Below, piece after piece: positions 39,632-63,849 of a DNA stretch of 64,000 bases. Position numbers and translations under genes: made by a program. The notes below the pieces were generated by a model. That model was not told the DNA's origin. It did no database searches and saw nothing but the letters and a program-made list of their open reading frames with translations. The stretch's first letter is position 1, and each line of letters opens with the position of its first letter. The stretch is from the NCBI GenBank assembly GCA_903905475.1, contig CAIVGK010000009.1, forward strand, positions 538 through 64,537, in the 5' to 3' direction. The DNA comes from an uncultured Burkholderiales bacterium (GTDB lineage: Bacteria > Pseudomonadota > Gammaproteobacteria > Burkholderiales > Burkholderiaceae_C).

Positions 39632-42600
39632 ATGAACGCACCCACGCTCCTTACCGAACTGGCAGCCGCCACCCTCCCTGCGCACGGCTCGGCGCGGTTG
39701 CGCGAGATTCCGTACAACTACACGTCGTTTTCCGATCGCGAGATCGTGCAGCGTCTGCTGGGTGCGCGTGCGTGGGAGTTGCTGGGGCGTTTGCGCGGTG
39801 AGCGTCAGACCGGCCGCTCGGCGCGGATGCTCTACGAGGTGCTGGGCGACATCTGGGTGGTGCAGCGCAACCCCTATTTGCAGGACGACCTGCTCGACAA
39901 CCCGCGCCGCCGCAAGCAGCTGATCGATGCCTTGCATCACCGGTTGGGCGAGGTCGAACGCCGAGTCACCACGTCGCAAGGCGATCACCATGGTGACGTC
40001 AACGAGTTGATCAAAAGCGCCAGCCTGGCGGTGCACCGGTTTGCCAAGCAGTTCGACGAGGTGGCTCGTCTGCGTCGAAGCGCCAGCAAGTTGCTCAACC
40101 GCTGCACCGCGTCTGACAACGTCAAGTTCGATGCCTTGTCGCGCGTGTCGCATGTGACCGACGCCACCGACTGGCGAGTCGAATACCCGTTCGTGGTGCT
40201 CACGCCAGACACCGAAAGCGAGATGGCCGCTCTGGTGAAGGGCTGCGTCGAGCTGGGGCTGACGATCATCCCGCGTGGCGGCGGTACCGGGTACACCGGC
40301 GGCGCGATTCCGCTGATCTGGAACAGCGCGGTCATCAACACCGAAAAGCTCGAGGCGATGACCGAGGTCGAGATGCGCCGCCTGCCGGGACTGGACCGCG
40401 AGGTCGCCACGGTGTGGACCGAAGCCGGCGTTGTCACCCAGCGCGTGGCCGATGCCGCCGAGCGAGGCGGATTTGTCTTTGCCGTCGACCCGACCTCGGC
40501 CGAGGCCTGCTGCATCGGCGGCAACATCGCGATGAACGCCGGCGGCAAGAAGGCCGTGCTGTGGGGCACGGCGCTCGACAACCTGGCCTCTTGGCGCATG
40601 GTCACGCCCGAGGCCAAGTGGCTCGAGGTCACGCGCTTGAACCACAACCTTGGCAAGATCCACGACGTGGCCGTGGCCAGCTTCGAGCTGAAGTACTTCG
40701 ACGCCAGCGGCAAGACCCTGGAGCGCACCGAGCGGCTCGACATTCCGGGCAGCACCTTCCGCAAGGAGGGCCTCGGCAAGGACGTGACCGACAAGTTCCT
40801 GGCTGGCCTGCCAGGCATTCAGAAAGAGGGCTGCGATGGCCTGATCACCAGCGCGCGCTGGATCGTGCACAAGATGCCGGCGCACGTGCGCACGGTGTGC
40901 CTCGAGTTCTTTGGCAACGCCAAGGATGCGGTGCCCAGCATTGTCGAGATCAAGGACTACATGTTCGCGCAGGCCAAGGCTGGCGGTGCGGTGCTGGCAG
41001 GCCTGGAGCACCTCGACGACCGCTACCTGAAGGCCGTGGGTTACGCCACCAAGAGCAAGCGCGCGCATGCCGCTGGCAACGCCTCTGGCCTGCCGAAGAT
41101 GGTGCTGTTCGGTGACATCGCCGGCGACGATGCGGACGTGGTGGCGCGCGCCACCAGCGAGGTGATCCGCATCGCCAACAGCCGCGCGGGCGAGGGTTTT
41201 GTGGCGGTGAGCCCCGAGGCGCGCAAGAAATTCTGGCTCGATCGCAAACGCACTGCGGCCATCAGCAAGCACACCAATGCGTTCAAGGTGAACGAGGATG
41301 TGGTGATCCCTCTGCCACGCATGGGCGAGTACACGGAGGGCATTGAGCGCATCAACATCGAGCTGAGTCTGCGCAACAAGCTGGCGCTGCTCGATGCACT
41401 GGAAACGTTCTTCCTCAAGGGATCGCTCCCCCTGGGCAAGACCGACGATGCGGTGGAAATCGCGTCGGCCGAGTTGCTGGAAGACAGCGTGGCGCAAGCC
41501 TTGGCGCTGATCGGGGGGGTACGCGCGCTGTGGCAGCGATGGCTGTCGCACCTCGACACGCCGTCAGCACAGCGACTCGTGGCTGACGACAGTGCCTCGG
41601 CGTCCGGTTCGCAGGACGAGCGAACCTATTTCGCGCAGCTGCAGGATCGCACCCTGCGCGCATCGTGGAAATTGCAGGTCCGCGCGCCGCTGCAGTCGAT
41701 CTTCTCGGGGGCATCGTTGTCGCCGATCCTCGAGGCTTGCCAGAAGATCCACGCCGAGGTGTTGCACGGGCGGGTCTGGATCGCGCTGCACATGCACGCG
41801 GGTGATGGCAACGTGCACACCAACATCCCGGTCAACAGCGACGACTACGACATGCTGCAAACCGCGCATGAGGCCGTCGCTCGCATCATGGGCCTGGCGC
41901 GCCGGCTCGATGGCGTGATTTCCGGCGAGCATGGCATCGGCATCACCAAGCTCGAGTTCGTCACCGACGACGAGCTGGCCGACTTCGCGGCCTACAAGCA
42001 GCGCATCGATCCCGAGGGGCGTTTCAACAAGGGCAAGTTGTTGCGCCCCGGCGCCGCCCATGCCGCTGGCGAGGGGGCTTCAACCGAGCTGCGTGCGTCT
42101 GATCTGAGCCAGGCCTACACGCCGAGCTTCGGGCTGATGGGGCATGAGTCGCTCATCATGCAGCAAAGCGACATCGGCGCGATCGCCGACAGCATCAAGG
42201 ACTGCATGCGCTGCGGCAAGTGCAAGCCGGTGTGCGCCACCCATGTGCCGCGCGCCAATCTGCTGTACAGCCCACGCAACAAGATCCTCGCGACGTCGCT
42301 GCTCGTCGAAGCGTTCCTCTATGAAGAGCAGACGCGCCGCGGCGTGAGCCTGAAGCACTGGGAAGAGTTCGAAGACGTCGCGGACCACTGCACCGTGTGC
42401 CACAAGTGCGCGAGCCCATGCCCGGTGAAGATCGACTTCGGCGAGGTGTCGATGAACATGCGCAACCTGTTGCGCAAGATGGGCCAGAAGAGCTTCCGGC
42501 CGGGCAACGCCCTGTCGATGGCGTTCCTCAACGCCACCAGCCCCGACAAGATCAACCTGATGCGCAGCGCCATGGTCGGCGTGGGCTTCAAGGCGCAGCG

Positions 42601-43669
42601 GCTGGCCCATGACCTGCTGGGTCGGCTGGCGCGAAAGCAGACCGCTGCGCCTCGGGCCACCGTGGGCACCGCGCCCATCAAGGAACAGGTGATCCACTTC
42701 ATCAACAAGAAGTTGCCGGGTGGGTTGCCCAAAAAGACCGCGCGCGCCTTGCTCGACATTGAGGACAAGGATTACGTTCCGATCATCCGCAACCCGGCCA
42801 CCACCACGGCCGACACCGAGGCGGTGTTCTATTTCCCGGGCTGCGGCTCAGAGAGGCTGTTCTCGCAAGTGGGTCTGGCCACGCAGGCCATGCTGTGGCA
42901 CGCTGGAGTGCAAACGGTCTTGCCACCGGGCTACTTGTGCTGTGGCTATCCGCAGCGCGGCAGCGGGCAGTTCGACAAGGCCGACAAGATCATCACCGAC
43001 AACCGGGTCTTGTTCCACCGCGTGGCCAACACGCTGAACTACCTGGACATCAAGACGGTGGTGGTCAGTTGCGGCACCTGCTACGACCAGCTGCAGGGTT
43101 ATCAGTTCGACAAGATCTTCCCGGGCTGCCGAATCATCGACATCCACGAGTACCTGCTCGAAAAGAACATCACGCTGCAGGGGCAGGGCGGCTACCTGTA
43201 CCACGACCCCTGCCACAGCCCGATGAAGCTGCAAGAGCCGATGAAGACGGTCAAGGCGCTGGTGGGTGGCAGTCACCCCGAGGCGGTTCTCGAAAGCAAG
43301 CGCTGCTGCGGTGAAGCCGGCACGCTGGGCGTGACCCGTCCGGACATCTCGACGCAGATTCGCTTCCGCAAGGAAGAAGAGCTGAAGAAAGACGAGCAGG
43401 CCCTGCGGCGGATCACGGCAGGGTTGGTGCCGGATCGTGAGGGCGTTGCAGCCGTCGCGCCCTCCGCGGAAAAGGGCAACCTGAAGATCCTCACCTCGTG
43501 CCCCAGCTGTTTGCAGGGGCTCAGCCGCTACGGCGGTGACCTGCAAAACGGGCTGCTCGAGGCCGACTACATCGTGGTCGAGATGGCAAACCAGTTGCTC
43601 GGCGCGGATTGGATGCCCGAGTACGTGGAACTTGCCAATCGGGGTGGCATCGAGCGGGTCCTGGTGTGA
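39632..43669 (+). CDS. DUF3683 / FAD-linked oxidase / 4Fe-4S / CCG-domain fusion oxidoreductase (YdiJ-like)
   Basis: The 1345-aa product has an FAD-binding PCMH region ([16 protein letters not shown]) and two ferredoxin motifs ([29 protein letters not shown]). It also has CCG motifs ([23 protein letters not shown]). Confidence 0.85.
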
Positions 43670-45571: not shown

Positions 45572-46654
45572 ATGTTTTCAGGAACCAACTTGGTGGTTGA
45601 AATACGCAGTCTTTTTGTCCGGGTGTCTGCGCCTCTTGTTGGGGTTGTCATCGTTGCGGGGCTGCTGGTTGGATGCGGTGGCGGCGACAAGAAGGAAAAG
45701 ACGGCATCGCAGACGGCTGCCAAGGTAAACAAGGAAGAAATCACGGTCCACCAGATCAACAACGTCTTGCAGCAGCAAAGGGGACTGAAGCCTGAGATGG
45801 CGGCTTCTGCCAGCGTTCAGGTTCTCGAGCGCCTGATTGATCAGGAACTGGCGATACAAAAAGCGCAGGAACAAAAGATCGATCGCGATCCGCGGGTGGT
45901 TCAGCAAATTGAATCTGCTCGGCGCGAAATCATTTCTCGTGCCTATATCGAGAAAGTCGGGTCGGGTGTTCCAACACCAACACCAGCCGAAATCAAGGCG
46001 TACTTCGACAGCAAGCCAGCGCTGTTCAGTGCGCGCAAGGTCTATTCGTTTCAGGAATTGATGATTGAGGCGGACGCCGGACAAATCACAGCCTTGCGCG
46101 AGGCCTTGGCTGCGGCCAAGGACATTAATGCATTCGCGGAATATCTGAAGGCCAATAACTTCAAGTTTGGCGGCAATCAGGCCAGTCGAGCAGCTGAACA
46201 GTTGCCGCTGGCGAGCTTGGACGAGATCGCCAAAATGAAGAACGGCCAGGCCTTGTTCAGCGTGACCCCCAAGGGCGCCCAGGTCACCGTGCTGGCCGGC
46301 ACTCGGGATCAGCCTGTCGATGAGGTTCGCGCCCAGCCGGCCATCGAGCAATTCTTGCTGAACGAGCGCAAGCGCAAGGTGGTCGAGGACGATTTGAAGG
46401 CGCTTCGCAAGGCAGCGAAGATCGAATACGTGGGCGACTATGCCGGCGGGGCACCCAAATCGCTCGAGGAGAAACTGAACGTTTCGCCCACCCGATCACC
46501 TTTGGTGGATTCTTCGGCCTCAGCCGCTGAGTATGTTCCGCCAGCGCCAGCTCCGCTGGCTTCTGCCCCTGTCGATACAACACCTGCAGAGCCCTTCGCC
46601 GCATCAGCCCCGACCGGGAAAGCGCTGGAGATGGGCCTGAAGGGTTTCAAGTGA
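45572..46654 (+). CDS. epsD: EpsD-family peptidyl-prolyl isomerase-like lipoprotein
   Basis: A hydrophobic leader ends in the lipobox LLVGC. The body is SurA/PpiC-like and the tail is Pro/Ala-rich. It sits first in an epsD-E-F-G-exosortase order. The start may lie slightly downstream of 45572. Confidence 0.65.
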   Translation: MFSGTNLVVEIRSLFVRVSAPLVGVVIVAGLLVGCGGGDKKEKTASQTAAKVNKEEITVHQINNVLQQQRGLKPEMAASASVQVLERLIDQELAIQKAQEQKIDRDPRVVQQIESARREIISRAYIEKVGSGVPTPTPAEIKAYFDSKPALFSARKVYSFQELMIEADAGQITALREALAAAKDINAFAEYLKANNFKFGGNQASRAAEQLPLASLDEIAKMKNGQALFSVTPKGAQVTVLAGTRDQPVDEVRAQPAIEQFLLNERKRKVVEDDLKALRKAAKIEYVGDYAGGAPKSLEEKLNVSPTRSPLVDSSASAAEYVPPAPAPLASAPVDTTPAEPFAASAPTGKALEMGLKGFK

Positions 46655-46705
46655 CCTGCAAGTTGTCCATTGCAAGACTGCTCGAATATCAAGGAAGGCT
46701 CAGCC

Positions 46706-47512
46706 ATGGTTGCCAGGCGAATTTTCTCGACGTTTGTTTTTCTCTTTGCCTGCACGGGCGCCTCGTGGGCTCAAACGCCAGACACGTCCGAGTACATCCT
46801 CGGCACTGGCGACGTGATCAAGGTCACGGTTTACCAAGTGCCAGATTTGAGCGTGGAGGCTCGGATTTCTGAACTGGGCCGGATCACCTTCCCGCTGCTG
46901 GGTAGCGTGACAGTGGGGGGAAGCACGCCAACGGGCGTCCAGGACAAGATCGCCAAGGCGCTCAGAGACGGCGGCTTCGTCCTGAAACCGCAAGTGATCG
47001 TGTCGATCCTGCAGGTCAAGAGCAATCTGGTGTCGATTCTTGGGCAGGTCGGGAAGCCCGGTCGCTACCCGATAGAAACGGCAAATACCAAGGTGTCCGA
47101 GATCATCGCTGCGGCGGGTGGCATCCTGCCCGGTGGGTCTGACGTGGTCACGCTTGTCGGCACCCGCAATGAGAAGGCTGTGCGACTCGAAATTGACGTG
47201 CCGGCCATTCTCCAAGCGGGGAAAAACGAACTCGACGTGAATGTCATCAACGGCGACATCATCTACGTGGCTGTCGCACCCACCGCCTACATGTACGGCG
47301 AGGTTCAGCGCCCAGGCGTCTTCCCAATCGAGCGCGGCATGAGCGTGCTGCAGGCGCTCGCTCATGCGGGCGGCCCTACCCCTAAGGGTACCGAGCGTGG
47401 CATGCGTGTTCACCGTCGGGATGCCAAAGGCACCGTGCAGATTCTTGACTTGAAGATGGCAGACATCGTTGAACCCGGCGACGTGATCTACGTTCGCGAA
47501 TCGATTTTTTAA
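46706..47512 (+). CDS. epsE: Outer-membrane polysaccharide export (OPX) protein, short EpsE type
   Basis: A signal peptide, a Poly_export motif (YILGTGDVIKVTVYQVPDLS...GRITFPLLGSV) and two SLBB-like repeats are present. The protein ends at ...YVRESIF with no C-terminal helix. Confidence 0.85.
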   Translation: MVARRIFSTFVFLFACTGASWAQTPDTSEYILGTGDVIKVTVYQVPDLSVEARISELGRITFPLLGSVTVGGSTPTGVQDKIAKALRDGGFVLKPQVIVSILQVKSNLVSILGQVGKPGRYPIETANTKVSEIIAAAGGILPGGSDVVTLVGTRNEKAVRLEIDVPAILQAGKNELDVNVINGDIIYVAVAPTAYMYGEVQRPGVFPIERGMSVLQALAHAGGPTPKGTERGMRVHRRDAKGTVQILDLKMADIVEPGDVIYVRESIF

Positions 47513-47523
47513 GGCGTTCTGGC

Positions 47524-48933
47524 ATGACGGCTGGTCAGATCCTGCGAATTCTTTGGGCTCGAAAGTGGCTGTTTCTGACCTTGTTCCTGGTCGTCGCCGT
47601 CGCGGGAGCTGCGTACACCCTCACGCGGCCGAAGGTCTATGTGGCGAATGCATCGATGGTCGTGGATGCGCGGCCCGATCCATTGCTCGGCGCTCTGGCC
47701 GTACCTGCGAACATGGCCACCCAGGTCGAGATCGTCAGGAGCGACAAGGTGGCCACCCGAGTTGTCAAGATTCTGGGCGTCGAGCGTTCGCCCGAGGCGG
47801 TGCAGCAGTGGCGGGAAGAGACGCAAGCGAAGATCCCGCTTGACCGCTACTTCGCGGACCTTTTGGGGCGCGGGCTGGTCATCGAACCGGGGCGCGGCAG
47901 CAACGTCATCAACCTGACTTTCAGCGCTCAGGATCCAGCCTTTGCGGCGTCTGCGGCCAATGCCTTCGTGCAGGCGGCCATTCAGGTGTCGATCGAGCTT
48001 CAGATCGATCCGGCCAGGCAGTCAACGCCATTTGTCGAGGCTCAGGTCGGCGCAGCTCGGAAGACGCTGGAAGATGCGCAGGCCAAGCTCTCAGAGTTTC
48101 AGAAATCAAAGGGCATCGTCGCCTCCGATGAGCGTGTCGACGAAGAGACTTCCAAATTGAATGAGTTGTCGAGCCAACTGGCCGCCGCGCAGGTCCAGCG
48201 GGTCGAATCGTCTGGACGGCAACGAGACAGCGGTACCGAGGTCTCTCCCGATGTCCAGCAAAGTGGTGCTGTTCAGTCGTTGAAGAACCAGCTCGCGGCA
48301 GCCGAACTTCGGTTGGCAGAAGTCAGCGATGTCATGGGTGCGAACCATCCGCAACGACAGCAGATCCAGGTTCAGATTGCGAGCCTGCAAAGGCAAGTCG
48401 CTGACGAGGTGCGCCGTGTGTCAGGTGGTGCTGCCGTGGCCAGCCGTGCCAGTTCGAAGATGGTGACCGAGTTGCATTCCTTGCTTGAAGACCAGAAGAA
48501 ACGTGTGCTTGCTCTGCGAGCCGACAAGGATCAGATCTCCATCCTTTTGCGCGACGTTGAAACGGCCAATCGTGCTTACGACGCCCTGAGCCAACGCTCG
48601 ACACAGGTGAACCTGGAGTCGCAGAACAACAAGTCTCCGTTGCGGGTGCTGAGTGTGGCGGTTGAGCCTTTCGAGCCGTCGTTGAAGTCGACCGCCAAGG
48701 GAGTGATCGTCTCGTTTGGCGGGGGCTTGCTGCTGGGTTTTGCGGTTGTGATGCTGCTGGAGTTCTTGGACCGCAGGGTTCGAGGCCCGGAAGATCTGGC
48801 GATGCTCCACGGCGTGCCGGTCATCGGGGTGCTGCGCCCGGCCACCTCGAAGCGGAGGATTTTTCGCCGGCTTTCTGCGGCTAACGCACCGCCCGGCGGA
48901 GCCCCGTTACTGACAGGCACCGCACGTCCATGA
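47524..48933 (+). CDS. epsF: Polysaccharide co-polymerase / chain-length determinant (EpsF type)
   Basis: The N-terminal TM segment is WLFLTLFLVVAVAGAAY. A long coiled-coil periplasmic region and a C-terminal TM segment (GGGLLLGFAVVMLLEFL) follow. Confidence 0.85.
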   Translation: MTAGQILRILWARKWLFLTLFLVVAVAGAAYTLTRPKVYVANASMVVDARPDPLLGALAVPANMATQVEIVRSDKVATRVVKILGVERSPEAVQQWREETQAKIPLDRYFADLLGRGLVIEPGRGSNVINLTFSAQDPAFAASAANAFVQAAIQVSIELQIDPARQSTPFVEAQVGAARKTLEDAQAKLSEFQKSKGIVASDERVDEETSKLNELSSQLAAAQVQRVESSGRQRDSGTEVSPDVQQSGAVQSLKNQLAAAELRLAEVSDVMGANHPQRQQIQVQIASLQRQVADEVRRVSGGAAVASRASSKMVTELHSLLEDQKKRVLALRADKDQISILLRDVETANRAYDALSQRSTQVNLESQNNKSPLRVLSVAVEPFEPSLKSTAKGVIVSFGGGLLLGFAVVMLLEFLDRRVRGPEDLAMLHGVPVIGVLRPATSKRRIFRRLSAANAPPGGAPLLTGTARP

Positions 48934-49832
48934 AGGTCAACTTCAACAATCTGCCGGCTGTTTCCAGGGCCAATCGATCCATCGGTGCCATCCTGATGGA
49001 TGCGGGGCTTTTGTCGCCCGAGGACGCTGAGCGCATCCTGCTGCTCCAAAAGGAAAAGAACCTCAGGTTCGGTGATGCGGCGATTGCTCTGGGCATCCTC
49101 ACCGAGGCTGACATCCAGTTCGCGTTGTCCCGGCAGTTTTCTTATCCGTATCTGCGCTCGGTGGATCAAAAGAAACCGGTCAGTACGGAACTCATCGCCG
49201 CCTACCAGCCGTTCAGCCCCTGCGTGGACCAACTCCGGGCCATTCGAAGTCAACTGATGATGCGTTGGTTCGACAAGACCGAGCAGCGTCAGGTTCTTGC
49301 TGTCGTTGGCTCTGCGCGAGGAGAAGGCCGAAGCTACCTGGCCGCCAATTTGGCGGTGGTCTTTTCTCAACTCGGCGAGCGAACCCTCCTGATTGACGCT
49401 GATTTGCGTCACCCACGCCAGCACGAGATGTTCATGCTGGACAACGGTACGGGACTGTCGACCGTGCTGTCGGAGCGTTCCCGCGACGAGGCCATCGTTC
49501 GGATCACCGATTTGGTCGGCCTCTTCGTGCTACCCGCAGGGCCGACGCCGCCCAACCCGTTGGAACTGCTCTCGCGCCCGCTGTTCGATGACTTCATGAC
49601 CCGCATGCGCAGCACCTTCGACGTGGTCATTCTGGATACATCGAGCCTGTCAGACGGGGAGGATGGCGCCATGGTCGCCATTCGTGCGGGCGCTGCCATT
49701 GCTGTCGCCCAAGCCACGCAAACTCGGGTGGCGGACTTCAACGATCTGGTTCAAGGGTTGATGAACGCCGGTGTTTCGGTCGTCGGCTCGGTGTTGAATG
49801 AAGTCGTGGCGGATGAAAAGCCGAGCAAATGA
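48930..49832 (+). CDS. epsG: EpsG-type BY-kinase homolog with N-terminal MshEN/T2SSE_N-like domain; Walker A atypical
   Basis: The P-loop is VVGSARGEGRS, Walker A' is LLIDADLRHP and Walker B-like is VVILDTSS. The N-terminal 53-aa tandem motif lies at residues 17-69. It has an ATGA overlap with epsF. Confidence 0.8.
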   Translation: MKVNFNNLPAVSRANRSIGAILMDAGLLSPEDAERILLLQKEKNLRFGDAAIALGILTEADIQFALSRQFSYPYLRSVDQKKPVSTELIAAYQPFSPCVDQLRAIRSQLMMRWFDKTEQRQVLAVVGSARGEGRSYLAANLAVVFSQLGERTLLIDADLRHPRQHEMFMLDNGTGLSTVLSERSRDEAIVRITDLVGLFVLPAGPTPPNPLELLSRPLFDDFMTRMRSTFDVVILDTSSLSDGEDGAMVAIRAGAAIAVAQATQTRVADFNDLVQGLMNAGVSVVGSVLNEVVADEKPSK

Positions 49833-50719
49833 GCGGTATGCCTTCACTGCGCGCTGCCGGGCGGGATGAATCCGGGTCGATGTCGCCGTGGTGGGTCGCG
49901 CTTGCGGGTTTGGCGGTCATGTACATCCCCATGTACTGGGCGGCCGCTGGTGGTCTGTGGCAAAGCGATGAGCATGCCCATGGAGTGATCGTCCTCGTGG
50001 TGGCGATGTGGCTTTTCTGGACGACAAGGAGAGGCGTCGCCAGTGCTTGCCAGTCACCATCACCGGCGATCGGGTGGTTGCTTTTCCTGTTCGGGCTTTG
50101 CGTGTACTTGGCTGGGCGGGTGGTCGGGATCACCATCCTTGAGTTTTCCTCACAGCCGCTGGTGCTGGCCGGGTTGTTGCTGGTACTCAAAGGGCCAAGC
50201 GCACTGAAAGTTGCTTGGTTCCCAATCGTCTATTTGGTTTTCATGATCCCCTTGCCGGGCATCTTTGTGGACGCTGTCACCGGGCCATTGAAGAGCTGGA
50301 TTTCAATGATCGTCGTGGAGATGCTTCATTGGGCCGGCTACCCGATCGCCCGCAACGGGGTGACGATCACTGCGGGGCAATATCAGATGCTCGTGGCTGA
50401 CGCCTGTTCGGGCTTGCATTCCATGTTCAGCTTGTCCGCCCTTGGCACCCTGTTCATGTACATCATGGATCGACGGGTCCTGCTACACAACGCGGTCATG
50501 GTGGCCGCCATCCTTCCGATTGCATTCGCCGCGAACATCATCCGCGTGATGGTTTTGGTGTTGGTCACTTACCACCTCGGCGATGAGGCCGGCCAGGGTT
50601 TTTTGCACGGCATGGCCGGAATGTTTCTGATGCTGGTCGCGCTGGGCAGCTTTTTTGCGCTTGATGCCGCACTGGCTGGCATCGTTGGCGGGACGGCGGG
50701 AAAACCGGCGATTCGTTGA
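49829..50719 (+). CDS. xrtB: Exosortase (EpsH/XrtB type by context)
   Basis: A polytopic membrane protein with the catalytic contexts ADACSGLHS (Cys), ANIIRV (Arg) and TYHLGD/FLHG (His). It overlaps the epsG stop. Confidence 0.8.
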   Translation: MSGMPSLRAAGRDESGSMSPWWVALAGLAVMYIPMYWAAAGGLWQSDEHAHGVIVLVVAMWLFWTTRRGVASACQSPSPAIGWLLFLFGLCVYLAGRVVGITILEFSSQPLVLAGLLLVLKGPSALKVAWFPIVYLVFMIPLPGIFVDAVTGPLKSWISMIVVEMLHWAGYPIARNGVTITAGQYQMLVADACSGLHSMFSLSALGTLFMYIMDRRVLLHNAVMVAAILPIAFAANIIRVMVLVLVTYHLGDEAGQGFLHGMAGMFLMLVALGSFFALDAALAGIVGGTAGKPAIR

Positions 50720-50769
50720 TCGATCGCCAACTGTCACTGCACAACCCATGAGTACCGCTGAGCCTAAGC

Positions 50770-52326
50770 ATGCCTGAGCATCTGCGGGCGCTGATCGTGA
50801 TCCTGGGGCTGGCCAGCGCAGTGTTCGCCTACGTCCACAGACCTGCTTTTGGCCTCCCCATCGATTCAGTTGACCTGCGCCGCCGCCGCAATCTCTGGTT
50901 TGTGGTCACACTGATTGCGTTTCTGTCGCACAACTTCTGGATCTATGTGATCGGTGTTGCTGCGGTACTTCTCGTGCAGCGAAAGCACGAGCCCAACCCA
51001 CTGGCCATGTATCTCATGCTGTTGTTGGCCGTGCCGCCGTTTTCTGCGGCCATTCCGGGCCTCGGACCTATCGCGCAACTGTTTGAACTCAACCATCTTC
51101 GGTTGATGTCTCTCGCGATCTTGCTGCCTGCTTGGTGGTCACTACGATCCGACCGCTTACCCAGGGCGTTCGGATACTGCTGGGCAGATCGTTTTCTTTT
51201 GGCGTACCTGCTTTATCAAGCAGCATTGAACTTGGGCGTGGGCAACTTCACGAACGGGCTTCGGCAGGGCGTGCTGTACGGTTTCACTGACGTGTTCTTG
51301 CCGTACTACGTTGCCAGTCGAGGCTTGCGCAACCTTGCCGCCCTCCGTGATGCCGTCGCCTCTTTGGCGGTGGTGGGTTTTGTGCTGAGCGGCATCGCCT
51401 TATTCGAGTTCCTGAAGCATTGGCTGCTCTACGCCCAACTTGACTCCGTGCTCGGTGTCAGCTTCGGCATGGGTAACTACCAAGGCCGAGGCGATCTCGC
51501 TGTCATTCGAGCCAATGCCAGCCTAGGGCATGGCATTGCACTCGGTTACGTGATGGCCATTGCCTCGTTGCTGTACCTTGCCCTCGCGCCCTTGCCGGGC
51601 AAGGTCTTGCCGCGGTGGATCGGATCCGGGATTCTCATGGTGGGTTTGCTGGCTGCGCTGTCCAGGGGGCCATGGGTCGGCATGGCCGTTGGGGTCTGCG
51701 TCTTTGTTTTGATGTCAGCCCATCGCTCTCGGGATGTGTCCCGCCTTCTCGGGTGGGGCGCAATAGGCTTTTGTGTGCTGCTGGTGTCACCCTATGGAGG
51801 CACTTTGGTTAACTTGCTTCCGTTCATCGGGACAACCGATGCCGGAGGGGTCGAGTACCGTCAGCAACTATTCGAGGCGTCCCTGCTGGTGATGAAGCAG
51901 AACCCTTGGTTCGGCGGTGGTGACTACATCGGCGAACTGGCTGCGCTGGGCATGGTCCAAGGCGAAGGAATCGTCGATCTCGTCAACACCTACCTTGCCG
52001 TGGCTTTGACGCAGGGGCTGGTCGGTCTTGGGCTGTTCGCTGGGGTCTTCGCCTCCGCGGCTGCTGGGCTTTTGTCGGCGTGGCGCCGCGTCGGTGCTGA
52101 CTCCGATCTTCACCGGTTCGGCCGCGCCTTGTTGGCTGCGCTGGCAGCTGCCCTGGCCATCATTGCCACCATGAGCCCGATTCTTTGCGTGCCGACCATG
52201 TATTGGCTGCTCGCGGGGCTTTGCGTGGCGTACGCGCATTTGGCTGAGGCATCCAACTTGACCATTTCCAGTGTGCCGGGTGTGCCCCCCAGACACACTC
52301 CTGCCAGGCCTGCCGTGCCCACGTGA
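50770..52326 (+). CDS. O-antigen ligase / Wzy-like polytopic membrane protein
   Basis: The 518-aa product has at least 10 TM helices. A Wzy_C-like loop (LSRGPWVGMAVG) is present. Confidence 0.75.
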   Translation: MPEHLRALIVILGLASAVFAYVHRPAFGLPIDSVDLRRRRNLWFVVTLIAFLSHNFWIYVIGVAAVLLVQRKHEPNPLAMYLMLLLAVPPFSAAIPGLGPIAQLFELNHLRLMSLAILLPAWWSLRSDRLPRAFGYCWADRFLLAYLLYQAALNLGVGNFTNGLRQGVLYGFTDVFLPYYVASRGLRNLAALRDAVASLAVVGFVLSGIALFEFLKHWLLYAQLDSVLGVSFGMGNYQGRGDLAVIRANASLGHGIALGYVMAIASLLYLALAPLPGKVLPRWIGSGILMVGLLAALSRGPWVGMAVGVCVFVLMSAHRSRDVSRLLGWGAIGFCVLLVSPYGGTLVNLLPFIGTTDAGGVEYRQQLFEASLLVMKQNPWFGGGDYIGELAALGMVQGEGIVDLVNTYLAVALTQGLVGLGLFAGVFASAAAGLLSAWRRVGADSDLHRFGRALLAALAAALAIIATMSPILCVPTMYWLLAGLCVAYAHLAEASNLTISSVPGVPPRHTPARPAVPT

Positions 52327-52362
52327 GCCTTTCTCACCGCACGCGCCTATGCCCTTCGTACT

Positions 52363-53385
52363 GTGAACAGAACCCCAGCATCCGCCGCTGCCGATACGAG
52401 GGGTGTTCGCCGAGCCTGTGAGGCTGAGGATGAACCTCGGGTTTCAGTCATCATGGTGAACTACAACACGGCTGCGTTGATTCGGCCGATGGTGGACGGT
52501 CTCCTCGCGTCCGCCGCTGGTTGTGGCGCGGTCCAGATCGTGGCCTTGGACAATGCGTCACGCGACGATTCTTTGGTAGCCCTCAAATCACTCGGGGACC
52601 GGGTCGATCTCATCGTCAACGCACACAACGTGGGCTTTGGACGCGCCAACAATCAGTGCCTTGCCAGGACACGAGGCCGCTACGTGTTGCTTTTGAACAC
52701 GGATGCATTCGTTGCCCCGGATACGCTGGGTCAAACGTTGGACTACATGGATTCCAACCCAAAAACTGGCGTGCTCGGCGTGCGCTTGGTGGGTCGAGAC
52801 GGCGTGCTCCAGCCCTCCTGCCGGTACTTCCCGACAGTTACCAACGTGTTCCTCTCCCGAACCGGGCTTGCCCGGTGGTTCCCGTGGATTCAGTCCATGG
52901 ACGACATGTCATGGGATCACGCCAGCGACCGACAGTGTGATTGGGTGCCCGGTTGCTACTACCTCGTGAGGCGCGAGGTGATCGATCAAGTTGGATTATT
53001 CGACCCGCGATACTTTCTGTACTACGAGGAAGTGGATCACTGCCGAGCCGTGAAAGCGGCCGGTTGGGATGTGACCTATTTTCATGACACGACGGTGGTG
53101 CATATCGGTGGTGAAAGCGCCAAGTCCGACAGCGATCTCACCCAGGGTGCGCGCCAGATTTCAGTGCTGCAAATCGAAAGTGAGCTGCTGTACTTCCGGA
53201 AACACGCTGGTCTTGGGGGGCTGTTTGCGCATCTGTGCCTTACCGTGCTGGCCGCCTTGATCCTGAACCTGAAATCCGCTCTCAAGGGCCAAGGCGCCCG
53301 AGGTTTGGGGGCGCCTTGGGGCCACGTTCGGCAGGTGTTCACCCTCGCGCTACTGACGCGCTGGGGCACCCAGCCCACCCGATGA
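52363..53385 (+). CDS. Glycosyltransferase family 2
   Basis: Contains VSVIMVNYNT, LDNASRDDS and LLLNTDAF. The start is uncertain; GTG 52363 was chosen. Confidence 0.8.
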   Translation: MNRTPASAAADTRGVRRACEAEDEPRVSVIMVNYNTAALIRPMVDGLLASAAGCGAVQIVALDNASRDDSLVALKSLGDRVDLIVNAHNVGFGRANNQCLARTRGRYVLLLNTDAFVAPDTLGQTLDYMDSNPKTGVLGVRLVGRDGVLQPSCRYFPTVTNVFLSRTGLARWFPWIQSMDDMSWDHASDRQCDWVPGCYYLVRREVIDQVGLFDPRYFLYYEEVDHCRAVKAAGWDVTYFHDTTVVHIGGESAKSDSDLTQGARQISVLQIESELLYFRKHAGLGGLFAHLCLTVLAALILNLKSALKGQGARGLGAPWGHVRQVFTLALLTRWGTQPTR

Positions 53386-53909
53386 TTTCTGCACGACACA
53401 TGTTTTCGAACATCCGTGCAGACTTGGCCGCTCACCGGGGCGACTGGGGCGCGCAAGGGTTCTGGGCACTTGTGGTCTATCGCTTCGGCCGGTGGCGGTG
53501 TGGCCTGAAAGTCACCGTGGTGCGCAAGGCCCTCTCGCCGCTGTACCGGTTGGCCTTCAAGTTCGTCCAGATCGTCACAGGCATCGAGTTGCCCTGCGAA
53601 GTCGATATCGGACGCAACTTCGTCATCGATCACTCGGGCGGGATCGTCATCAGCGGGTATGCGAAGTTCGGTGACAACTGTCGCATCCGCAACGGCGTGG
53701 TGGTGGGCCTGAGTCGTGTCGATGACCCTTGCGCACCAGTCATCGGCAACAACGTCGATATTGGTGCCGGCGCGAAGTTGCTGGGCCGCATCAGCATTGG
53801 TGACAACTGCCTGATCGGAGCCAACGCCGTCGTCATTCGCGACGTGCCAGCAGACTCGATCGCCGTGGGCGTTCCTGCCGTCATCAAGCCCCGAAGCGCA
53901 ACGAGATGA
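53382..53909 (+). CDS. Hexapeptide-repeat O-acetyltransferase (serine acetyltransferase-like)
   Basis: Left-handed beta-helix repeats are present (IGRNFVIDHSGGIVISGYAKFGDNCRIRNGVVVG...IGNNVDIGAGAKLLGRISIGDNCLIGANAVV). It has an ATGA overlap with the upstream GT2. Confidence 0.8.
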   Translation: MISARHMFSNIRADLAAHRGDWGAQGFWALVVYRFGRWRCGLKVTVVRKALSPLYRLAFKFVQIVTGIELPCEVDIGRNFVIDHSGGIVISGYAKFGDNCRIRNGVVVGLSRVDDPCAPVIGNNVDIGAGAKLLGRISIGDNCLIGANAVVIRDVPADSIAVGVPAVIKPRSATR

Positions 53910-54901
53910 GCGTTGACCCTCCGATTGACGATGTCGCCCTGGTTGCCATCGGCCGCAACGAAGGCGACCGGCTGAGACGGTGCCTTGAATCCTCGGTGGG
54001 CCGAGTGTCTCGTGTGGTCTATGTCGATTCAGGTTCCACCGATGGATCGGCCGAACTCGCCGCTCGGATGGGCGCTGAGGTCGCGGCCCTCGACACCGCT
54101 TTGCCGTTCACCGCCGCTCGGGCGCGCAATGAAGGTGCCCGCAGGGCACTGCGTGGCCGATCGGGGACACGTTATCTGCAGTTCGTCGATGGAGACTGCG
54201 AAGTCGCCCCCAAGTGGCTCGGTCAGGCCAAGTCATTTCTGGATGCGCATCCAGCGGTCGTGGCGGTATGCGGGCGCCGCCGCGAGCGCTTCCCCGATCA
54301 ATCGATCTACAACCGCCTGTGCGATACCGAGTGGGACACGCCGGTCGGCTCGACGCGAGCCTTTGGTGGCGATGTCATGGTTCGAGTCGACGCGTTCAAT
54401 GCGGCCGGTGGATATCGTGATGAATTGATCGCGGGCGAAGACCCGGAACTCGCCATTCGACTTCGACAGGCCGGTGGTCAGTTGTGGCGTTTGGACATCG
54501 AGATGACCTTGCACGATGCCGCGATGACCCGATTCAGTCAGTGGTGGAAGCGCTCTGTGCGCGCGGGCTACGCGTTCGCCTTGGGCGCCTTCATTCATGG
54601 CGCCCCACCGGAGAGGCACTGGGTTCGAGAGTCCCGTCGCGCTTGGCTGTGGGGGCTCCTGATACCGCTCATGGGTGCGGCCGGACCTCTTTCGGGGCAT
54701 CCAATGCTCGCCGGGGTGGTGGCATTGCTCTATCTGCTGCAGTGGAGTCGACTTTTTGTCTCAACTGAAGGGACGTTATTTGTCAAATTGGCGCGCTCGA
54801 CATTCCTCGTTCTTGGAAAGTTTGCGGAGGCTGTAGGGCAAGTCAAGTTTTGTTGGCACCGCATGGCCGGGGTTCAAGCCAGGTTGATCGAGTACAGGTA
54901 A
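53906..54901 (+). CDS. Glycosyltransferase family 2 (GT-A) with C-terminal membrane segment
   Basis: Contains VALVAIGRNEGDRL, VDSGSTDGS, FVDGDC and AGEDPEL. It overlaps the acetyltransferase stop by 4 nt. Confidence 0.75.
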   Translation: MSVDPPIDDVALVAIGRNEGDRLRRCLESSVGRVSRVVYVDSGSTDGSAELAARMGAEVAALDTALPFTAARARNEGARRALRGRSGTRYLQFVDGDCEVAPKWLGQAKSFLDAHPAVVAVCGRRRERFPDQSIYNRLCDTEWDTPVGSTRAFGGDVMVRVDAFNAAGGYRDELIAGEDPELAIRLRQAGGQLWRLDIEMTLHDAAMTRFSQWWKRSVRAGYAFALGAFIHGAPPERHWVRESRRAWLWGLLIPLMGAAGPLSGHPMLAGVVALLYLLQWSRLFVSTEGTLFVKLARSTFLVLGKFAEAVGQVKFCWHRMAGVQARLIEYR

Positions 54902-54909
54902 TTTTTTGT

Positions 54910-56169
54910 ATGACCCGTCCCGCCATTGCTTATTTGGTCAACCAATACCCGAAGGTCAGCCACAGTTTCATTCGGCGGGAGATCCTGGCGCTTGAGCGGC
55001 TGGGCTTCGTCGTTCACCGCTGGGCCTCTCGTGGATGGGATGCCGATTGTCCTGACCCCGCTGACTTGGCTGAGCAGCGCCGTACACGCTATTTGCTGGC
55101 TGCGAGTCCTTTGAGTTTGTTGGCTGCGTTGCTGCGCACGCTTTTGACGAACCCGAAAGCGTTCATTGCCTCTGTCAGGCTGGCATGGCAGTGCAGCCGA
55201 GGCAGTGAGCGCCCATGGCCGGTTCATCTCGCTTATTTGGCACAGGCTTGTGTTGCCTGGAAATGGGCTCGCGAGGTCGGCGTGACTCACGTGCACGCAC
55301 ACTTTGGCACCAACCCCGCCGAGGTGGCCATGCTGTTATCTGCGCTTGGCGGCCCGCCATTCAGCTTCACGGTTCATGGCCCTGAGGAGTTCGACAAACC
55401 CAAGTCGTTGCACCTGCAGCGCAAGATCCAGCACTCGGCCTTCGTCGTGGCGATCAGTTCTTACGGTCGCAGCCAGCTTTACCGTTGGGCTGCGCTCGCC
55501 GATTGGCCCAAAGTGCAGGCCGTGCATTGCGGCATTGATGCCCAGTTCACCGACCGGGTGCCGCAGCCGATAAAGCCTTGGGCTCGGCTTGTGTGCGTCG
55601 GCCGACTTTGCGAGCAGAAGGGGCAGTCGCTGCTGATTCACGCGATGCAACTGCTGCTGAAGCAGGGGGTCGCCTTCGAATTGGTCCTGGCCGGCGATGG
55701 CGAGATGCGGATCGAGATCGAGGCGCTGATCCGGGCGTGCAGCTTGACCGAAAGGGTGCGCATCACCGGCTGGATCAGCGGTGAGCAGGTATCGCATGAG
55801 CTGGAGGCCGCCCGCGCCCTGGTGCTCCCCAGTTTTGCCGAGGGGCTGCCGGTGGTCATCATGGAGGCCATGGCGCTTGGCCGGCCGGTCATCAGTACCT
55901 TTGTGGCCGGAATTCCAGAGTTGGTGCGGCCCGGGGAAAACGGTTGGCTGGTTCCGGCTGGCGATATCGAGGCGCTCGCAGACGCGATGCGCGCTTGCCT
56001 CCAAGCCCCCCCGGATCAACTGAATGCCATGGGTGCAGCCGGACGCGAGCGTGTTCTGCAACGGCATGGCGCCGATGTCGAGGCGGCCAAGTTGGCCGCG
56101 TGCTTTCAGCAATCGGCCTCTTCGGCCGATATGCCTGCCATGCCTTGCACGCCCGGAAAACCAGGATGA
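54910..56169 (+). CDS. Glycosyltransferase family 4 (WcaL-like)
   Basis: Contains IAYLVNQYPKVSHSFIRREI. The GT-B C-terminal motif is LPSFAEGLPVVIMEAMALGRPVIST. Confidence 0.8.
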   Translation: MTRPAIAYLVNQYPKVSHSFIRREILALERLGFVVHRWASRGWDADCPDPADLAEQRRTRYLLAASPLSLLAALLRTLLTNPKAFIASVRLAWQCSRGSERPWPVHLAYLAQACVAWKWAREVGVTHVHAHFGTNPAEVAMLLSALGGPPFSFTVHGPEEFDKPKSLHLQRKIQHSAFVVAISSYGRSQLYRWAALADWPKVQAVHCGIDAQFTDRVPQPIKPWARLVCVGRLCEQKGQSLLIHAMQLLLKQGVAFELVLAGDGEMRIEIEALIRACSLTERVRITGWISGEQVSHELEAARALVLPSFAEGLPVVIMEAMALGRPVISTFVAGIPELVRPGENGWLVPAGDIEALADAMRACLQAPPDQLNAMGAAGRERVLQRHGADVEAAKLAACFQQSASSADMPAMPCTPGKPG

Positions 56170-57404
56170 ACAGCGAACTGCCGACGGTATTGGGTGCCGT
56201 CGTGAGCCTGCTGTTTGGTGTCCTGTGGGTTCCGGTAGCAGTGTTTGCTCTTCAAGTATTCGCGGCGAGGCCACATCAGTCCAAGCAGGGGGGATCCCCC
56301 TCGGCAAATGGCGTGAGCCTCGATGACTCTGAATCCAGGCCGCGCCCGCGGCTTGCCGTGCTGGTACCCGCACACAACGAGGCGGTCGGTATCGCCGCGA
56401 CCTTGATCGACGTGATCTCGCAGCTGAACGCGGGCGACCGATTGCTGGTGGTGGCCGATAACTGCAGCGACGCTACGGCTGATGTGGCGCGGCGCTGCGG
56501 CGCAGAAGTGATCGAGCGTGAGCACGACACCTCGCGCGGGAAAGGCCACGCACTTGATTTCGGTTTGCGGCATCTGGCTGCGGAGCCACCCGAGGTGCTG
56601 ATCGTTGTCGATGCCGACTGCTCCTTGGACGTCGGCGCCTTGCAGCGCTTGGCGGCGGCATGCGCCAGAAGTCAGCGTCCGGTTCAGGGCAGGTACCTGA
56701 TGCACGCTCCGGTGAATGCTCCGCTGCGCCTTCGCGTGGCCGCTTTCGCCTGGCGGGTCAAGAACTGGGTACGTCCGTTGGGAGCATCCCGCTTCGGGAT
56801 GCCCTGCCCGTTGATGGGTACGGGCATGGCCTTCCCCTGGGTATTGATCAGCGGCGCGTCGCTTGCTACAGCTCATCTGGTGGAGGACATGAAGCTTGGC
56901 CTCGAGCTGGCCCTTGCGGGGGCGCCCCCACTGTTTGTGTCTGACGCGAGGGTGAACAGCGTTTTTCCGCTGGCTCGCGAAGCCGCTCAGGCGCAACGAG
57001 CCCGCTGGGAACACGGGCACCTCTCGATGCTGCTCAGCGAGGGTCCGAGTCTCCTTGCCCGGGCTCTGGTGACTCGGGATCGGCGTCTGGCGGCCATGGC
57101 GCTTGATCTGATGGTGCCGCCGGTGACGCTGTTGTTGGGTGCGGTGCTGCTGACGGTGGTCATCGGTGCGGCCTTGCTCCCTGTGGCCTCGGCGCTGCCG
57201 GCCTGGATTGCCAGCGCTTGCCTGACGCTGATGCTGGCCGCTCTGGTGAGGGCTTGGTGGCTGGTCGGGCGTGACTTGTTGTCGGTGAGCGATCTGCTCC
57301 GTGCGCCGGCCCACGCCCTGCTTAAATTCCCGCTCTACTTGAAGTTCATCACCAACCGCCAAAAGGATTGGGTGCGAACCGAACGACATGACGACAAGCC
57401 CTGA
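56166..57404 (+). CDS. Membrane-embedded GT2 with synthase-type D,DxD,ED,QxxRW signature
   Basis: An N-terminal TM segment is present. Motifs are VVADNCSD, VVDADC, GTGMAF, VEDMKL and QRARW (56994-57008). C-terminal TM helices follow. It has an ATGA overlap with the GT4 gene. Confidence 0.8.
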   Translation: MNSELPTVLGAVVSLLFGVLWVPVAVFALQVFAARPHQSKQGGSPSANGVSLDDSESRPRPRLAVLVPAHNEAVGIAATLIDVISQLNAGDRLLVVADNCSDATADVARRCGAEVIEREHDTSRGKGHALDFGLRHLAAEPPEVLIVVDADCSLDVGALQRLAAACARSQRPVQGRYLMHAPVNAPLRLRVAAFAWRVKNWVRPLGASRFGMPCPLMGTGMAFPWVLISGASLATAHLVEDMKLGLELALAGAPPLFVSDARVNSVFPLAREAAQAQRARWEHGHLSMLLSEGPSLLARALVTRDRRLAAMALDLMVPPVTLLLGAVLLTVVIGAALLPVASALPAWIASACLTLMLAALVRAWWLVGRDLLSVSDLLRAPAHALLKFPLYLKFITNRQKDWVRTERHDDKP

Positions 57405-58515: not shown

Positions 58516-58516
58516 A

Positions 58517-61508: not shown

Positions 61509-61516
61509 GATGGCCC

Positions 61517-63535: not shown

Positions 63536-63849
63536 TGGTGCTCCCACCGCTTAGGGTTGTCTATTCAGCCAGATCGGCCGGAATTCGAGAGATTTGGGGC
63601 GCCTGAAGGGCGTTTCTTTGACCATCGGGGAAGGCACACCGACATGGTCGGTCCGGCTGTGAGCAATGCCTGCGAGGATGGGTCCGTGTGCCGTTGCCCG
63701 ACAGAGCGAAGTCGGGGCGCAGTTCAGCGCGCACAGGGGTTTTGTCGGCACTTTTCAAAGATGCTTGAGGAAACAAACAATAATCTGTTTGCCGGCAATA
63801 CCGCTACCCTCGGCTTTGCCCGAAACTTCTAATTCAGGAGACTCTCATT

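Follow-up and report, generated by a model that had tools for sequence, protein, structure and literature searches.

In the current view, a cycle of tyrosine phosphorylation in the kinase domain of the co-polymerase sets the timing of Wzx/Wzy-dependent polysaccharide pathways. What could take the place of this cycle if the kinase-like partner lacks both the catalytic lysine and the tyrosines? The question is raised by the gene epsG in a stretch of 64,000 nucleotides from an uncultured Burkholderiales bacterium (contig CAIVGK010000009.1, positions 538 to 64,537), here called the window. The gene encodes a 300-residue protein next to the co-polymerase EpsF, and its product combines an N-terminal module of the MshEN_N type, which in other proteins binds cyclic di-GMP (c-di-GMP), with a domain similar to the bacterial tyrosine kinases (BY-kinases), in which an arginine replaces the Walker A lysine and the C-terminal tyrosine cluster is absent. 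With a probability of roughly 0.55, we propose that EpsG is a nucleotide-binding, non-autophosphorylating BY-kinase-like scaffold for EpsF that is regulated by c-di-GMP, where the regulation is the part that we infer.

The protein matches the NCBIfam equivalog model for EpsG, TIGR03029, with 349 bits against a cut-off of 313.8, which bears out the EpsG-like identity given to it in a preliminary description of the locus made from the nucleotide sequence and its open reading frames. The match covers residues 16-291 of the protein and positions 3-274 of the 274 in the model, and the MshEN_N module therefore belongs to the definition of the EpsG family. The AlphaFold2 (AF2) model of the full protein has a mean predicted confidence (pLDDT) of 90.3 and a predicted TM-score (pTM) of 0.84.

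An MshEN_N module at the N-terminus of EpsG

Residues 17-69 (48978-49136) are composed of two 24-residue motifs separated by the spacer KEKNL (Table 1), exactly as stated in the preliminary description, and the spacing equals the published 24-5-24 architecture of MshEN_N (PMC5013675). The NCBIfam model NF053729 (c-di-GMP_motif, MshE-related) aligns with residues 18-69 over its positions 2-53 of 53, with an E-value of 7.6e-11 and 41.6 bits against a cut-off of 38. The isolated MshEN_N fragment has four matches only among the PDB sequences, all of which are GSPII or MshEN domains, namely PilF (8.3e-10), MshE from V. cholerae (5HTL, 1.4e-5), the PilF GSPII domain (4.1e-5) and PilB (3.8e-4), and its alignment with MshE extends over 60 residues without a gap. 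Modeled with AF2 from the single sequence (pLDDT 85.9), the fragment forms a four-helix bundle, and the best fold match in the PDB is 5HTL_B, the structure of MshE with c-di-GMP (TMq 0.87, root mean square deviation (rmsd) 1.6 A, 33% identity), followed by c-di-GMP-bound structures of PilF GSPII-B. In the model of the full protein, the helices are placed at residues 18-24, 30-43, 47-54 and 59-69. The resemblance is well beyond chance, and what EpsG has at its N-terminus is a genuine N-subdomain of the MshEN_N/GSPII type. The family model, the PDB sequences and the fold search thus agree on the c-di-GMP motif that had been recognized by eye in the preliminary description.

A search with the Pfam T2SSE_N/MshEN models, which had been named there as a check on the motif, was negative, with no match to T2SSE_N at E<=1 for the whole protein, and none even at E<=10 for residues 1-80. 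The Pfam scan of EpsG gave only sub-threshold matches to CbiA, ParA and AAA_31, together with weak chance matches to FumaraseC_C and DUF4388. EpsG lacks the MshEN_C (T2SSE_N1) subdomain, and its kinase-like domain begins near residue 85. The probable reason for the miss is that only the N subdomain is present, and we do not count it against the module because the NCBIfam model, the PDB sequence matches and the fold search agree. The isolated MshEN_N domain and proteins that have MshEN_N only do bind c-di-GMP, as shown for residues 1-62 of the V. cholerae protein (VcMshEN_N), with a dissociation constant of 0.35 uM, and for Bd2402 (PMC5013675).

Among 16 positions mapped onto MshE, ten are identical in EpsG (G11, G18, L29, Q32, R38, G40, D41, G47, L58 and Q61, in MshE numbering), three are conservatively replaced (L10 by Ile, L39 by Phe and L54 by Ile) and three are changed (R9 to Ser, D12 to Ala and L25 to Ala). 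As the preliminary description had pointed out, the arginine of the first motif is displaced by one residue, since Arg16 is located immediately upstream of the serine at the R9 position, while the arginine of the second motif, R38, is identical. The glycines G19 and G48 of EpsG correspond to G11 and G40 of MshE, at which substitutions abolish c-di-GMP binding (Wang et al. 2016, PMC5013675). Single changes of the conserved hydrophobic residues in MshE lower the affinity more than 10-fold, and changes of Arg9, Asp12 or Gln32 cause a loss of at most about 5-fold (PMC5013675). Judged by these residues, EpsG keeps the ones most critical for c-di-GMP binding in MshE, with a somewhat weakened motif I.

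The module is closed by the aromatic linker FSYPYL, which is part of a Q-F-x-Y-P-Y-L motif that directly follows MshEN_N and is strongly conserved across the family. The linker contains Y72 and Y74, the sole conserved tyrosines of EpsG. Among 150 family representatives (set b, below), the first of these positions is Tyr in 95 and Phe in 33, and the second is Tyr in 72, Cys in 16, Val in 15 and Phe in 9. The GSPII domains of PilF end in a similar ...LGYPYV at the equivalent place, and the FSYPYL segment probably caps the GSPII N-subdomain at its C-terminal end and is unlikely to accept phosphate.

A BY-kinase fold without the catalytic lysine and the tyrosine cluster

Residues from about 85 to 291 match the catalytic domains of BY-kinases in sequence, with CapB at 2.7e-30 and weaker matches to BceF, Wzc, Etk and VpsO. 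A structure search with the C-terminal 215 residues (Foldseek) likewise retrieved CapAB (E 4.7e-18) as well as Wzc, Etk, BceF and VpsO, and the kinase domain of Wzc superimposes on the EpsG model with an rmsd of 1.7-1.9 A over about 205 columns. As modeled, the C-terminal domain of EpsG is of the BY-kinase fold.

The P-loop of this domain reads GSARGEGRS. Arg134, encoded by CGA (49329-49331), aligns in HMMER with the Walker A lysine of CapB (Lys55 in ...APGAGKS...), and EpsG thus deviates from the Walker A pattern of the BY-kinases, GxxxxGK[ST], by having arginine in place of the catalytic lysine. The Walker A' motif is intact. The ILDTSS noted earlier as a Walker B-like motif lies within VVILDTSS, where the Asp-Thr pair is kept and two serines replace two prolines; the family consensus at this site is DTPA. 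The ring-interface motif E/DxxRxxR is present as DQLRAIR. EpsG contains tyrosines at positions 72, 74, 92 and 136 only, so that the final 164 residues have none, and merely 10 residues follow the last predicted strand, with no C-terminal tyrosine cluster. Save for the lysine, every motif of the nucleotide site is kept, and EpsG can probably still bind nucleotide and form a ring. The readings of the preliminary description hold for the arginine codon cga, for the Walker B-like motif and for the absence of tyrosine from the last ~60 residues, beyond which the tyrosine-free segment extends back to residue 136.

The missing features are the norm in the EpsG family

The distribution of these features was surveyed in three sets of homologs: (a) 120 close homologs with at least 69% identity, (b) 150 proteins with 39-69% identity, which are the best representatives of the clusters formed at 50% identity from the results of an exhaustive HMMER search, and (c) 80 species-representative genomes, mostly from the Burkholderiales, Rhodocyclales and Nitrosomonadales with a few Gammaproteobacteria, the related loci of which were retrieved with a 25-sequence alignment. 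The P-loop variants were counted by alignment column, as regular expressions overlooked many of them.

Every parseable P-loop in set (a) follows the pattern G-E/D-G-R-S/T, and 119 of the 120 proteins have no tyrosine in the last 40 residues. In the 150 representatives, the column of the Walker A lysine contains Arg in 97, Lys in 15, Cys in 9, Ser in 8, Ala in 7 and Thr in 6 proteins, plus Asn, Val, Gly and Pro, while the neighboring P-loop residues are kept (G133 in 140/150 and S/T135 in 141/150). In the 80 species genomes, the residue is Arg in 74, Gly in 3, and Cys, Thr or Val in one each, and never Lys. The P-loop GEGRS and the same C-terminal end occur together in 74 of these genomes, including those of cultured Caldimonas, Herbaspirillum, Methyloversatilis, Azoarcus and Nitrosospira, and most members of the family end at ...VLNE[FY]. 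A tyrosine cluster was found in none of the 150 representatives or the 80 species genomes. At most one tyrosine is placed beyond the last strand in 149 of the 150 representatives, and the exception has three scattered tyrosines in a long C-terminal extension. The 15 representatives with lysine likewise contain MshEN_N and lack a tyrosine cluster, which suggests that the loss of the tail accompanies the fusion and that the loss of the lysine is a frequent further step. A lysine that has been relocated, as in WNK kinases, was considered and rejected, since no column of the family alignment has at least 90% Lys.

The other motifs are well conserved. In the ring interface, E100 is present in 131, R103 in 146 and R106 in 147 of the 150 representatives; in Walker A', D156 is present in 148 and R160 in 140, with position 158 being Asp in 109 and Asn in 37; and in Walker B, D236 is present in 139 and T237 in 131. 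The lysine position varies freely amid these conserved motifs, which speaks for catalysis being dispensable. Natural variant P-loop families of the ParA/MinD type, NF047398 ("KGGVGR-motif variant AAA ATPase") and NF040564 in NCBIfam, weakly match the EpsG family. The missing lysine and the missing tyrosine tail are family-wide, and the gene in the window is an ordinary member of the family. The survey thereby answers the question put in the preliminary description, whether GEGRS and the lack of a tyrosine cluster are shared by the family (Arg in 74/80 and 97/150, no tyrosine cluster). Its remark that the ATPase core is atypical stands as far as the replaced lysine and the absent tail are concerned; as a peculiarity of this gene it does not, because the same features are the norm across the TIGR03029 EpsG family.

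Within the N-terminus, conservation is highest in the columns of MshEN_N. In motif I, G19 is present in 143, L22 in 139, G26 in 124 and Q40 in 124 of the 150 representatives, and in motif II, R46 is present in 97, F47 in 145, G48 in 143, L66 in 140 and Q69 in 144. Such conservation of the ligand-contact columns fits selection on the binding site and not on the fold alone, and the ligand-contact residues appear to be under purifying selection. Residue 27, immediately after G26 (49008-49010; I19 in MshE), is Leu in the protein studied here and Lys or Arg in 112 of the 150 representatives, and given this variation the affinity for c-di-GMP may differ between subclades of EpsG. All 133 aligned members match TIGR03029 and 131 of the 133 match NF053729. 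In addition, some members contain tandem MshEN_N modules, with two copies before the kinase-like domain (P0132, P0137 and P0210), and others have long low-complexity N-terminal extensions. The family is found in hundreds of species, mainly Betaproteobacteria and some Gammaproteobacteria, usually beside exosortase B.

The eps cluster and the single-chain relatives

EpsG adjoins EpsF and is placed in one operon with EpsD, EpsE and EpsH/XrtB, which is the operon context of EpsG proteins. The cluster is of the methanolan type, with the canonical order epsD-epsE-epsF-epsG-xrtB (Table 1). Across the 80 species genomes, the gene for EpsF is adjacent in 76, that for EpsE in 73 and that for XrtB in 56. 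We regard the association of EpsG with EpsF as obligatory. The stop codon of epsF and the start codon of epsG share the sequence ATGA (48930-48933), and so do the stop codon of epsG and the start codon of xrtB (49829-49832). Overlaps of this kind are typical of translationally coupled genes in operons, implying that the co-polymerase, its kinase-like partner and exosortase B are probably coupled in translation. EpsF scores 414.6 bits with TIGR03017, slightly under the cut-off of 422.75. It ends 53 residues past its second transmembrane segment and contains no P-loop domain, and its cytoplasmic juxtamembrane tail DRRVRGPEDLAMLHGVPVIGVLRP resembles in sequence the C-terminal segment of CapA. This CapA segment docks on CapB and activates it.

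Table 1. Features of the eps cluster and of the proteins EpsF and EpsG, in positions of the window
Feature	Position	Strand	Residues	Remarks
epsD	45572-46654	+		EpsD-family peptidyl-prolyl isomerase; TIGR02925, 231 bits (cut-off 108.9)
epsE	46670-47512	+		outer-membrane polysaccharide export (OPX) protein; TIGR03028, 310.5 bits (cut-off 262.65)
epsF	47524-48933	+		polysaccharide co-polymerase (PCP; Wzz/GNVR); TIGR03017, E 4.4e-124; Pfam Wzz
EpsF cytoplasmic juxtamembrane tail, DRRVRGPEDLAMLHGVPVIGVLRP	48769-48840	+	416-439 (EpsF)	CapA-activator-like
epsG	48930-49832	+		ATG start, 300 aa; MshEN_N and BY-kinase-like P-loop protein; TIGR03029
MshEN_N motif I, SIGAILMDAGLLSPEDAERILLLQ	48978-49049	+	17-40
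Spacer, KEKNL	49050-49064	+	41-45	5 residues
MshEN_N motif II, RFGDAAIALGILTEADIQFALSRQ	49065-49136	+	46-69
Aromatic linker, FSYPYL	49137-49154	+	70-75	conserved; closes the MshEN_N module
Ring-interface motif E/DxxRxxR, DQLRAIR	49227-49247	+	100-106	aligns with EKFRGIR of CapB
Variant Walker A, GSARGEGRS	49308-49334	+	127-135
Walker A', LLIDADLR	49386-49409	+	153-160	intact
Walker B, VVILDTSS	49623-49646	+	232-239	Asp-Thr kept, PP replaced by SS
EpsG C-terminus, GSVLNEVVADEKPSK	49785-49829	+		no Tyr cluster; ends just past the last strand
xrtB (epsH)	49829-50719	+		exosortase B; TIGR03113, 323.4 bits (cut-off 275); Pfam Exosortase_EpsH, 8.9e-67
Wzy_C/O-antigen-ligase-like gene	50770-52326	+		membrane protein, candidate polymerase; Pfam PF04932, E 1e-12
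MOP/Wzx-type flippase gene	58517-59866	+		end of the eps cluster; NF007773 (MOP flippase), E 1.8e-20, under the cut-off

Several independent cluster representatives in the family are single-chain relatives of the two proteins. Three of these (P0135, 749 aa; P0143, 772 aa; P0202, 747 aa) have the domains in the order PCP, tail, linker, MshEN_N and P-loop domain, although some of the single-chain cases could be gene-calling fusions. They contain the PCP juxtamembrane motif RRRVRxxEDL...P[LV]L[GT]xLP, which is the same segment as the EpsF tail. The recurring order of the fusions puts the sensor between the membrane-proximal tail of the co-polymerase and the kinase-like ring.

The candidate polymerase encoded directly after exosortase B, at the place where Methylobacillus has EpsI, is a protein of 518 aa with no NCBIfam match, and a Wzy_C-like gene adjoins XrtB in only 19 of the 80 related loci. 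Several glycosyltransferases and one acetyltransferase are encoded between this gene and that of the flippase. Among the open reading frames of the cluster scanned with Pfam and NCBIfam (45572-59866), neither a priming phosphoglycosyl transferase nor a regulator of the EpsA type was seen. Searches of the six frames of the window with regular expressions found no PEP-CTERM tails, no signature of a low-molecular-weight protein tyrosine phosphatase (LMW-PTP) and no GGDEF or EAL gene, the sole GGDEF string being a spurious one that is placed antisense inside epsG. PilZ-like strings in the window were rejected, as they span stop codons or are located in non-coding frames. The genes upstream of the cluster (secA, argJ, ubiE and one for a DUF3683/FAD-oxidase/CCG protein) are unrelated to it. 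The last of these, upstream of ubiE at 39632-43669, encodes a 1345-aa fusion of DUF3683, FAD-oxidase, 4Fe-4S, CCG and DUF3400 domains that is unrelated to EpsG. Just downstream of the cluster, a DUF1501/DUF1800 pair on the minus strand (60138-63547), neither of which has an NCBIfam match, is probably also unrelated.

Similarities to and differences from known systems

The closest described system is the methanolan eps cluster of Methylobacillus sp. 12S and M. flagellatus, in which EpsG (Mfla_2024) belongs to the same family, has the gene order epsD-E-F-G-H and combines MshEN_N with a P-loop. Its N-terminus, as printed in the alignment of Wang et al. 2016, can be aligned with that of the protein studied here at every residue, including the segments PEDAERI...KEKGLRFGEAA...SRQFNYPYL. 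However, Mfla_2024 is without two residues that the EpsG in the window contains, namely the glutamine that ends motif I and the arginine that immediately precedes this motif. To members outside the Sphaerotilaceae, the protein has about 40-58% identity. Mfla_2024 is listed in the supplement of Wang et al. 2016 (PMC5013675) as a protein with MshEN_N and a non-T2SSE ATPase, which is a prediction, and the biosynthesis of exopolysaccharide by Methylobacillus sp. is cited in the main text (PMC5013675).

The c-di-GMP receptors MshE (5HTL), GSPII-B/C of PilF from T. thermophilus and Bd2402 share with EpsG the 24-5-24 double motif and the four-helix bundle, and Bd2402 is similar to EpsG also in having the N subdomain only. 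In EpsG, the module is joined with a BY-kinase-like P-loop domain of the MinD/ParA type, and not with a hexameric ATPase of the type II secretion or type IV pilus machinery. EpsG also differs from them in that it lacks MshEN_C and has a less canonical motif I (Ser, Ala and Ala at R9, D12 and L25), and its ligand binding is predicted. NfrB of E. coli, a c-di-GMP-activated glycosyltransferase that contains MshEN, provides a precedent for post-translational control of an exopolysaccharide by this domain (PMC8669469), and the NfrB model weakly matches EpsG through its MshEN region. Yet NfrB is a synthase-dependent GT2 enzyme, whereas any action that EpsG may have would be on a Wzx/Wzy co-polymerase.

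With the canonical BY-kinases, CapB/CapA of S. aureus, Wzc and Etk of E. coli, BceF and VpsO, EpsG shares the fold, Walker A', the Asp of Walker B and ExxRxxR. Similar to EpsF and EpsG, CapA and CapB are split into a PCP, with a juxtamembrane activator-like tail, and a kinase. Unlike these enzymes, EpsG has Arg for the Walker A lysine, no tyrosine cluster, no phosphatase nearby and an extra second-messenger domain at its N-terminus. In the replaced lysine and the missing tyrosine cluster it resembles the BY-pseudokinase scaffolds EcpK/EpsV of M. xanthus and HfsB/HfsA of C. crescentus, for which a PCP-2 subfamily that works independently of phosphorylation has been proposed (PMC12004946), and GumC of X. 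campestris has been remarked on as a "pseudo-BY-kinase" (PMC9800525). These proteins have in common with EpsG the BY fold, the absence of a tyrosine tail and of the catalytic lysine, and the role of a stand-alone partner of a kinase-less PCP-2. EpsG falls within the definition of a BY pseudokinase given in PMC12004946, with the likeness to EcpK and HfsB drawn from descriptions and motif patterns. In contrast to EcpK, which lacks all Walker motifs (PMC12004946), EpsG has the Ser of the P-loop and the Asp of Walker B as well as Walker A' and ExxRxxR. It also contains a ligand-sensor domain, which is reported for none of the described BY pseudokinases.

Among the papers searched, none beyond the supplement of Wang et al. 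2016 was found to link c-di-GMP or MshEN to EpsG or the BY-(pseudo)kinases. The paper on EcpK contains neither "c-di-GMP" nor "MshEN" and leaves open what drives the proposed cycles of binding and unbinding (PMC12004946), and a 2025 preprint (bioRxiv 10.1101/2025.09.08.674843) still ascribes the action of EpsG to whether it is phosphorylated. The sensor and the pseudokinase class are each known, and the sole new element here is that the MshEN_N sensor is joined with the BY-pseudokinase idea.

Proposed mechanism and alternative explanations

In the mechanism that we propose, the co-polymerase EpsF has EpsG as its partner on the cytoplasmic side, in an exopolysaccharide pathway of the Wzx/Wzy type that is linked to exosortase B. 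EpsG would dock on the C-terminal tail of EpsF, which is similar to that of CapA, as CapB does on CapA, and would oligomerize through ExxRxxR in the manner of the BY-kinase ring. ATP would still be bound but hydrolyzed poorly or not at all; Rad51-K191R, which carries the Walker A change from Lys to Arg, binds ATP with reduced affinity and does not hydrolyze it (PMC1919488). There would be no cycle of autophosphorylation and dephosphorylation in EpsG. The occupancy of MshEN_N by c-di-GMP would instead set the polymerization- or export-competent state of the EpsF/EpsG assembly, and the output of exopolysaccharide would thereby be coupled to c-di-GMP post-translationally. Of the parts of this proposal, the pseudokinase character of EpsG seems quite probable, the predicted binding of c-di-GMP is rather likely, and the gating of oligomerization by c-di-GMP is put forward tentatively. 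The suggestion in the preliminary description that the co-polymerase is gated by c-di-GMP instead of tyrosine phosphorylation is thus partly supported, being reasonable and consistent with all computations, although it goes beyond what they display. In its broadest form, the proposal would make the whole EpsG family c-di-GMP-operated BY pseudokinases, in which ATP is a structural cofactor of a Wzc-like ring under EpsF and c-di-GMP replaces the tyrosine phosphorylation cycle, and at that breadth it is somewhat more doubtful than believable.

Several observations weigh against the proposed role of EpsG as a c-di-GMP-regulated scaffold. An arginine in the P-loop does not by itself prove that phosphotransfer is lost, and a lysine is found in 10% of the family representatives. 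The share of arginine may moreover be inflated, as sets (a)-(c) were retrieved with an arginine-bearing query and the representatives were ranked by similarity. Two conserved tyrosines, Y72 and Y74, are located in the linker. With regard to the ligand, motif I departs from MshE at three contacts, one of which, L25A, on its own lowers the affinity of MshE more than 10-fold, and the Lys or Arg that follows G26 in much of the family resembles I19R, listed for the non-binding XpsE. The window contains no gene for a diguanylate cyclase or a phosphodiesterase, so that a local source of c-di-GMP is not evident. Finally, no published c-di-GMP binding for any EpsG was found in the literature search, and the entry from 2016 is predictive only.

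One alternative is that MshEN_N is a degenerate, non-binding relic, as in XpsE or GSPII-A of PilF, that serves as an adaptor to EpsF or a membrane platform, with EpsG being a constitutive scaffold. Small departures from the consensus can abolish binding by GSPII domains, as stated in PMC12002112, and the same holds for XpsE; in motif I of EpsG, the Arg of position 1 is missing and Leu25 is replaced by Ala, and the Pfam MshEN model gives no match. Yet Bd2402, one of the proteins listed with experimentally verified binding, is also devoid of the Arg at position 1 of motif I, and the disabling changes of the XpsE type (G11V, L29R, R38G, G40L, L54H, L58C and Q61V) are all absent from EpsG. Furthermore, the Gly, hydrophobic and Gln columns that contact the ligand are the most conserved of the domain in a family whose divergence reaches down to about 40% identity, and the NF053729 score is above the curated cut-off. 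We consider a relic to be unlikely, if still the most credible of the alternatives.

It is less probable still that EpsG has remained an active tyrosine kinase, with Arg134 replacing the lysine, with Y72/Y74, EpsF or a sugar-precursor or priming enzyme as the substrate, and with c-di-GMP modulating the activity. In its favor, the remaining motifs in the nucleotide site are strongly conserved, a minority of the family has GxGK[ST], and Y72 and Y74 are both Tyr in 71 of the 80 species. However, a position that is also occupied by Cys, Ser, Ala, Thr, Asn, Val or Gly in the family is ill suited to a required catalysis, and the Walker A mutant of Rad51 from Lys to Arg loses hydrolysis (PMC1919488). 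Y72 and Y74 are replaced by Phe in many members, and the latter also by Cys or Val, and they correspond to the ...GYPYV end of the GSPII domains of PilF, which are not kinase substrates. These two tyrosines were therefore judged to be unlikely phospho-acceptors. A phosphotyrosine phosphatase signature is also absent from and near the 81 loci, that is, no LMW-PTP signature was found within ±6 kb in the 80 related loci. The last explanation, that the change from Lys to Arg and the short C-terminus reflect lineage-specific decay or an artefact in the assembly or annotation of a metagenomic contig, deserves practically no weight. The material is uncultured and the identical protein is found on metagenome contigs of ENA/JGI, but these amount to 10 independent contigs, and the explanation is refuted by the recurrence of GEGRS with the same C-terminal end among the species genomes of the survey.

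Implications for the control of exopolysaccharide export

The authors of the EcpK study speculate that cycles of binding and unbinding stand in for the phosphorylation cycle (PMC12004946). The EpsG family is a concrete candidate for such a system, in that it combines a kinase-like scaffold lacking the lysine and the tyrosine tail with a c-di-GMP receptor module of the high-affinity type. The value of the finding lies in this family-wide hypothesis, as the gene in the window is itself a routine member of the family. If the hypothesis is true, EpsG would represent the first second-messenger-gated Wzx/Wzy co-polymerase and would answer the question raised by these authors of what drives the phosphorylation-independent cycles of PCP-2 proteins. 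The database names "tyrosine kinase EpsG" and "receptor protein-tyrosine kinase", as well as the literature on its phosphorylation state, would then be corrected. For many environmental and wastewater Betaproteobacteria, it would mean that c-di-GMP acts as a post-translational checkpoint on the Wzx/Wzy exopolysaccharide, and thereby on the formation of flocs and biofilms.

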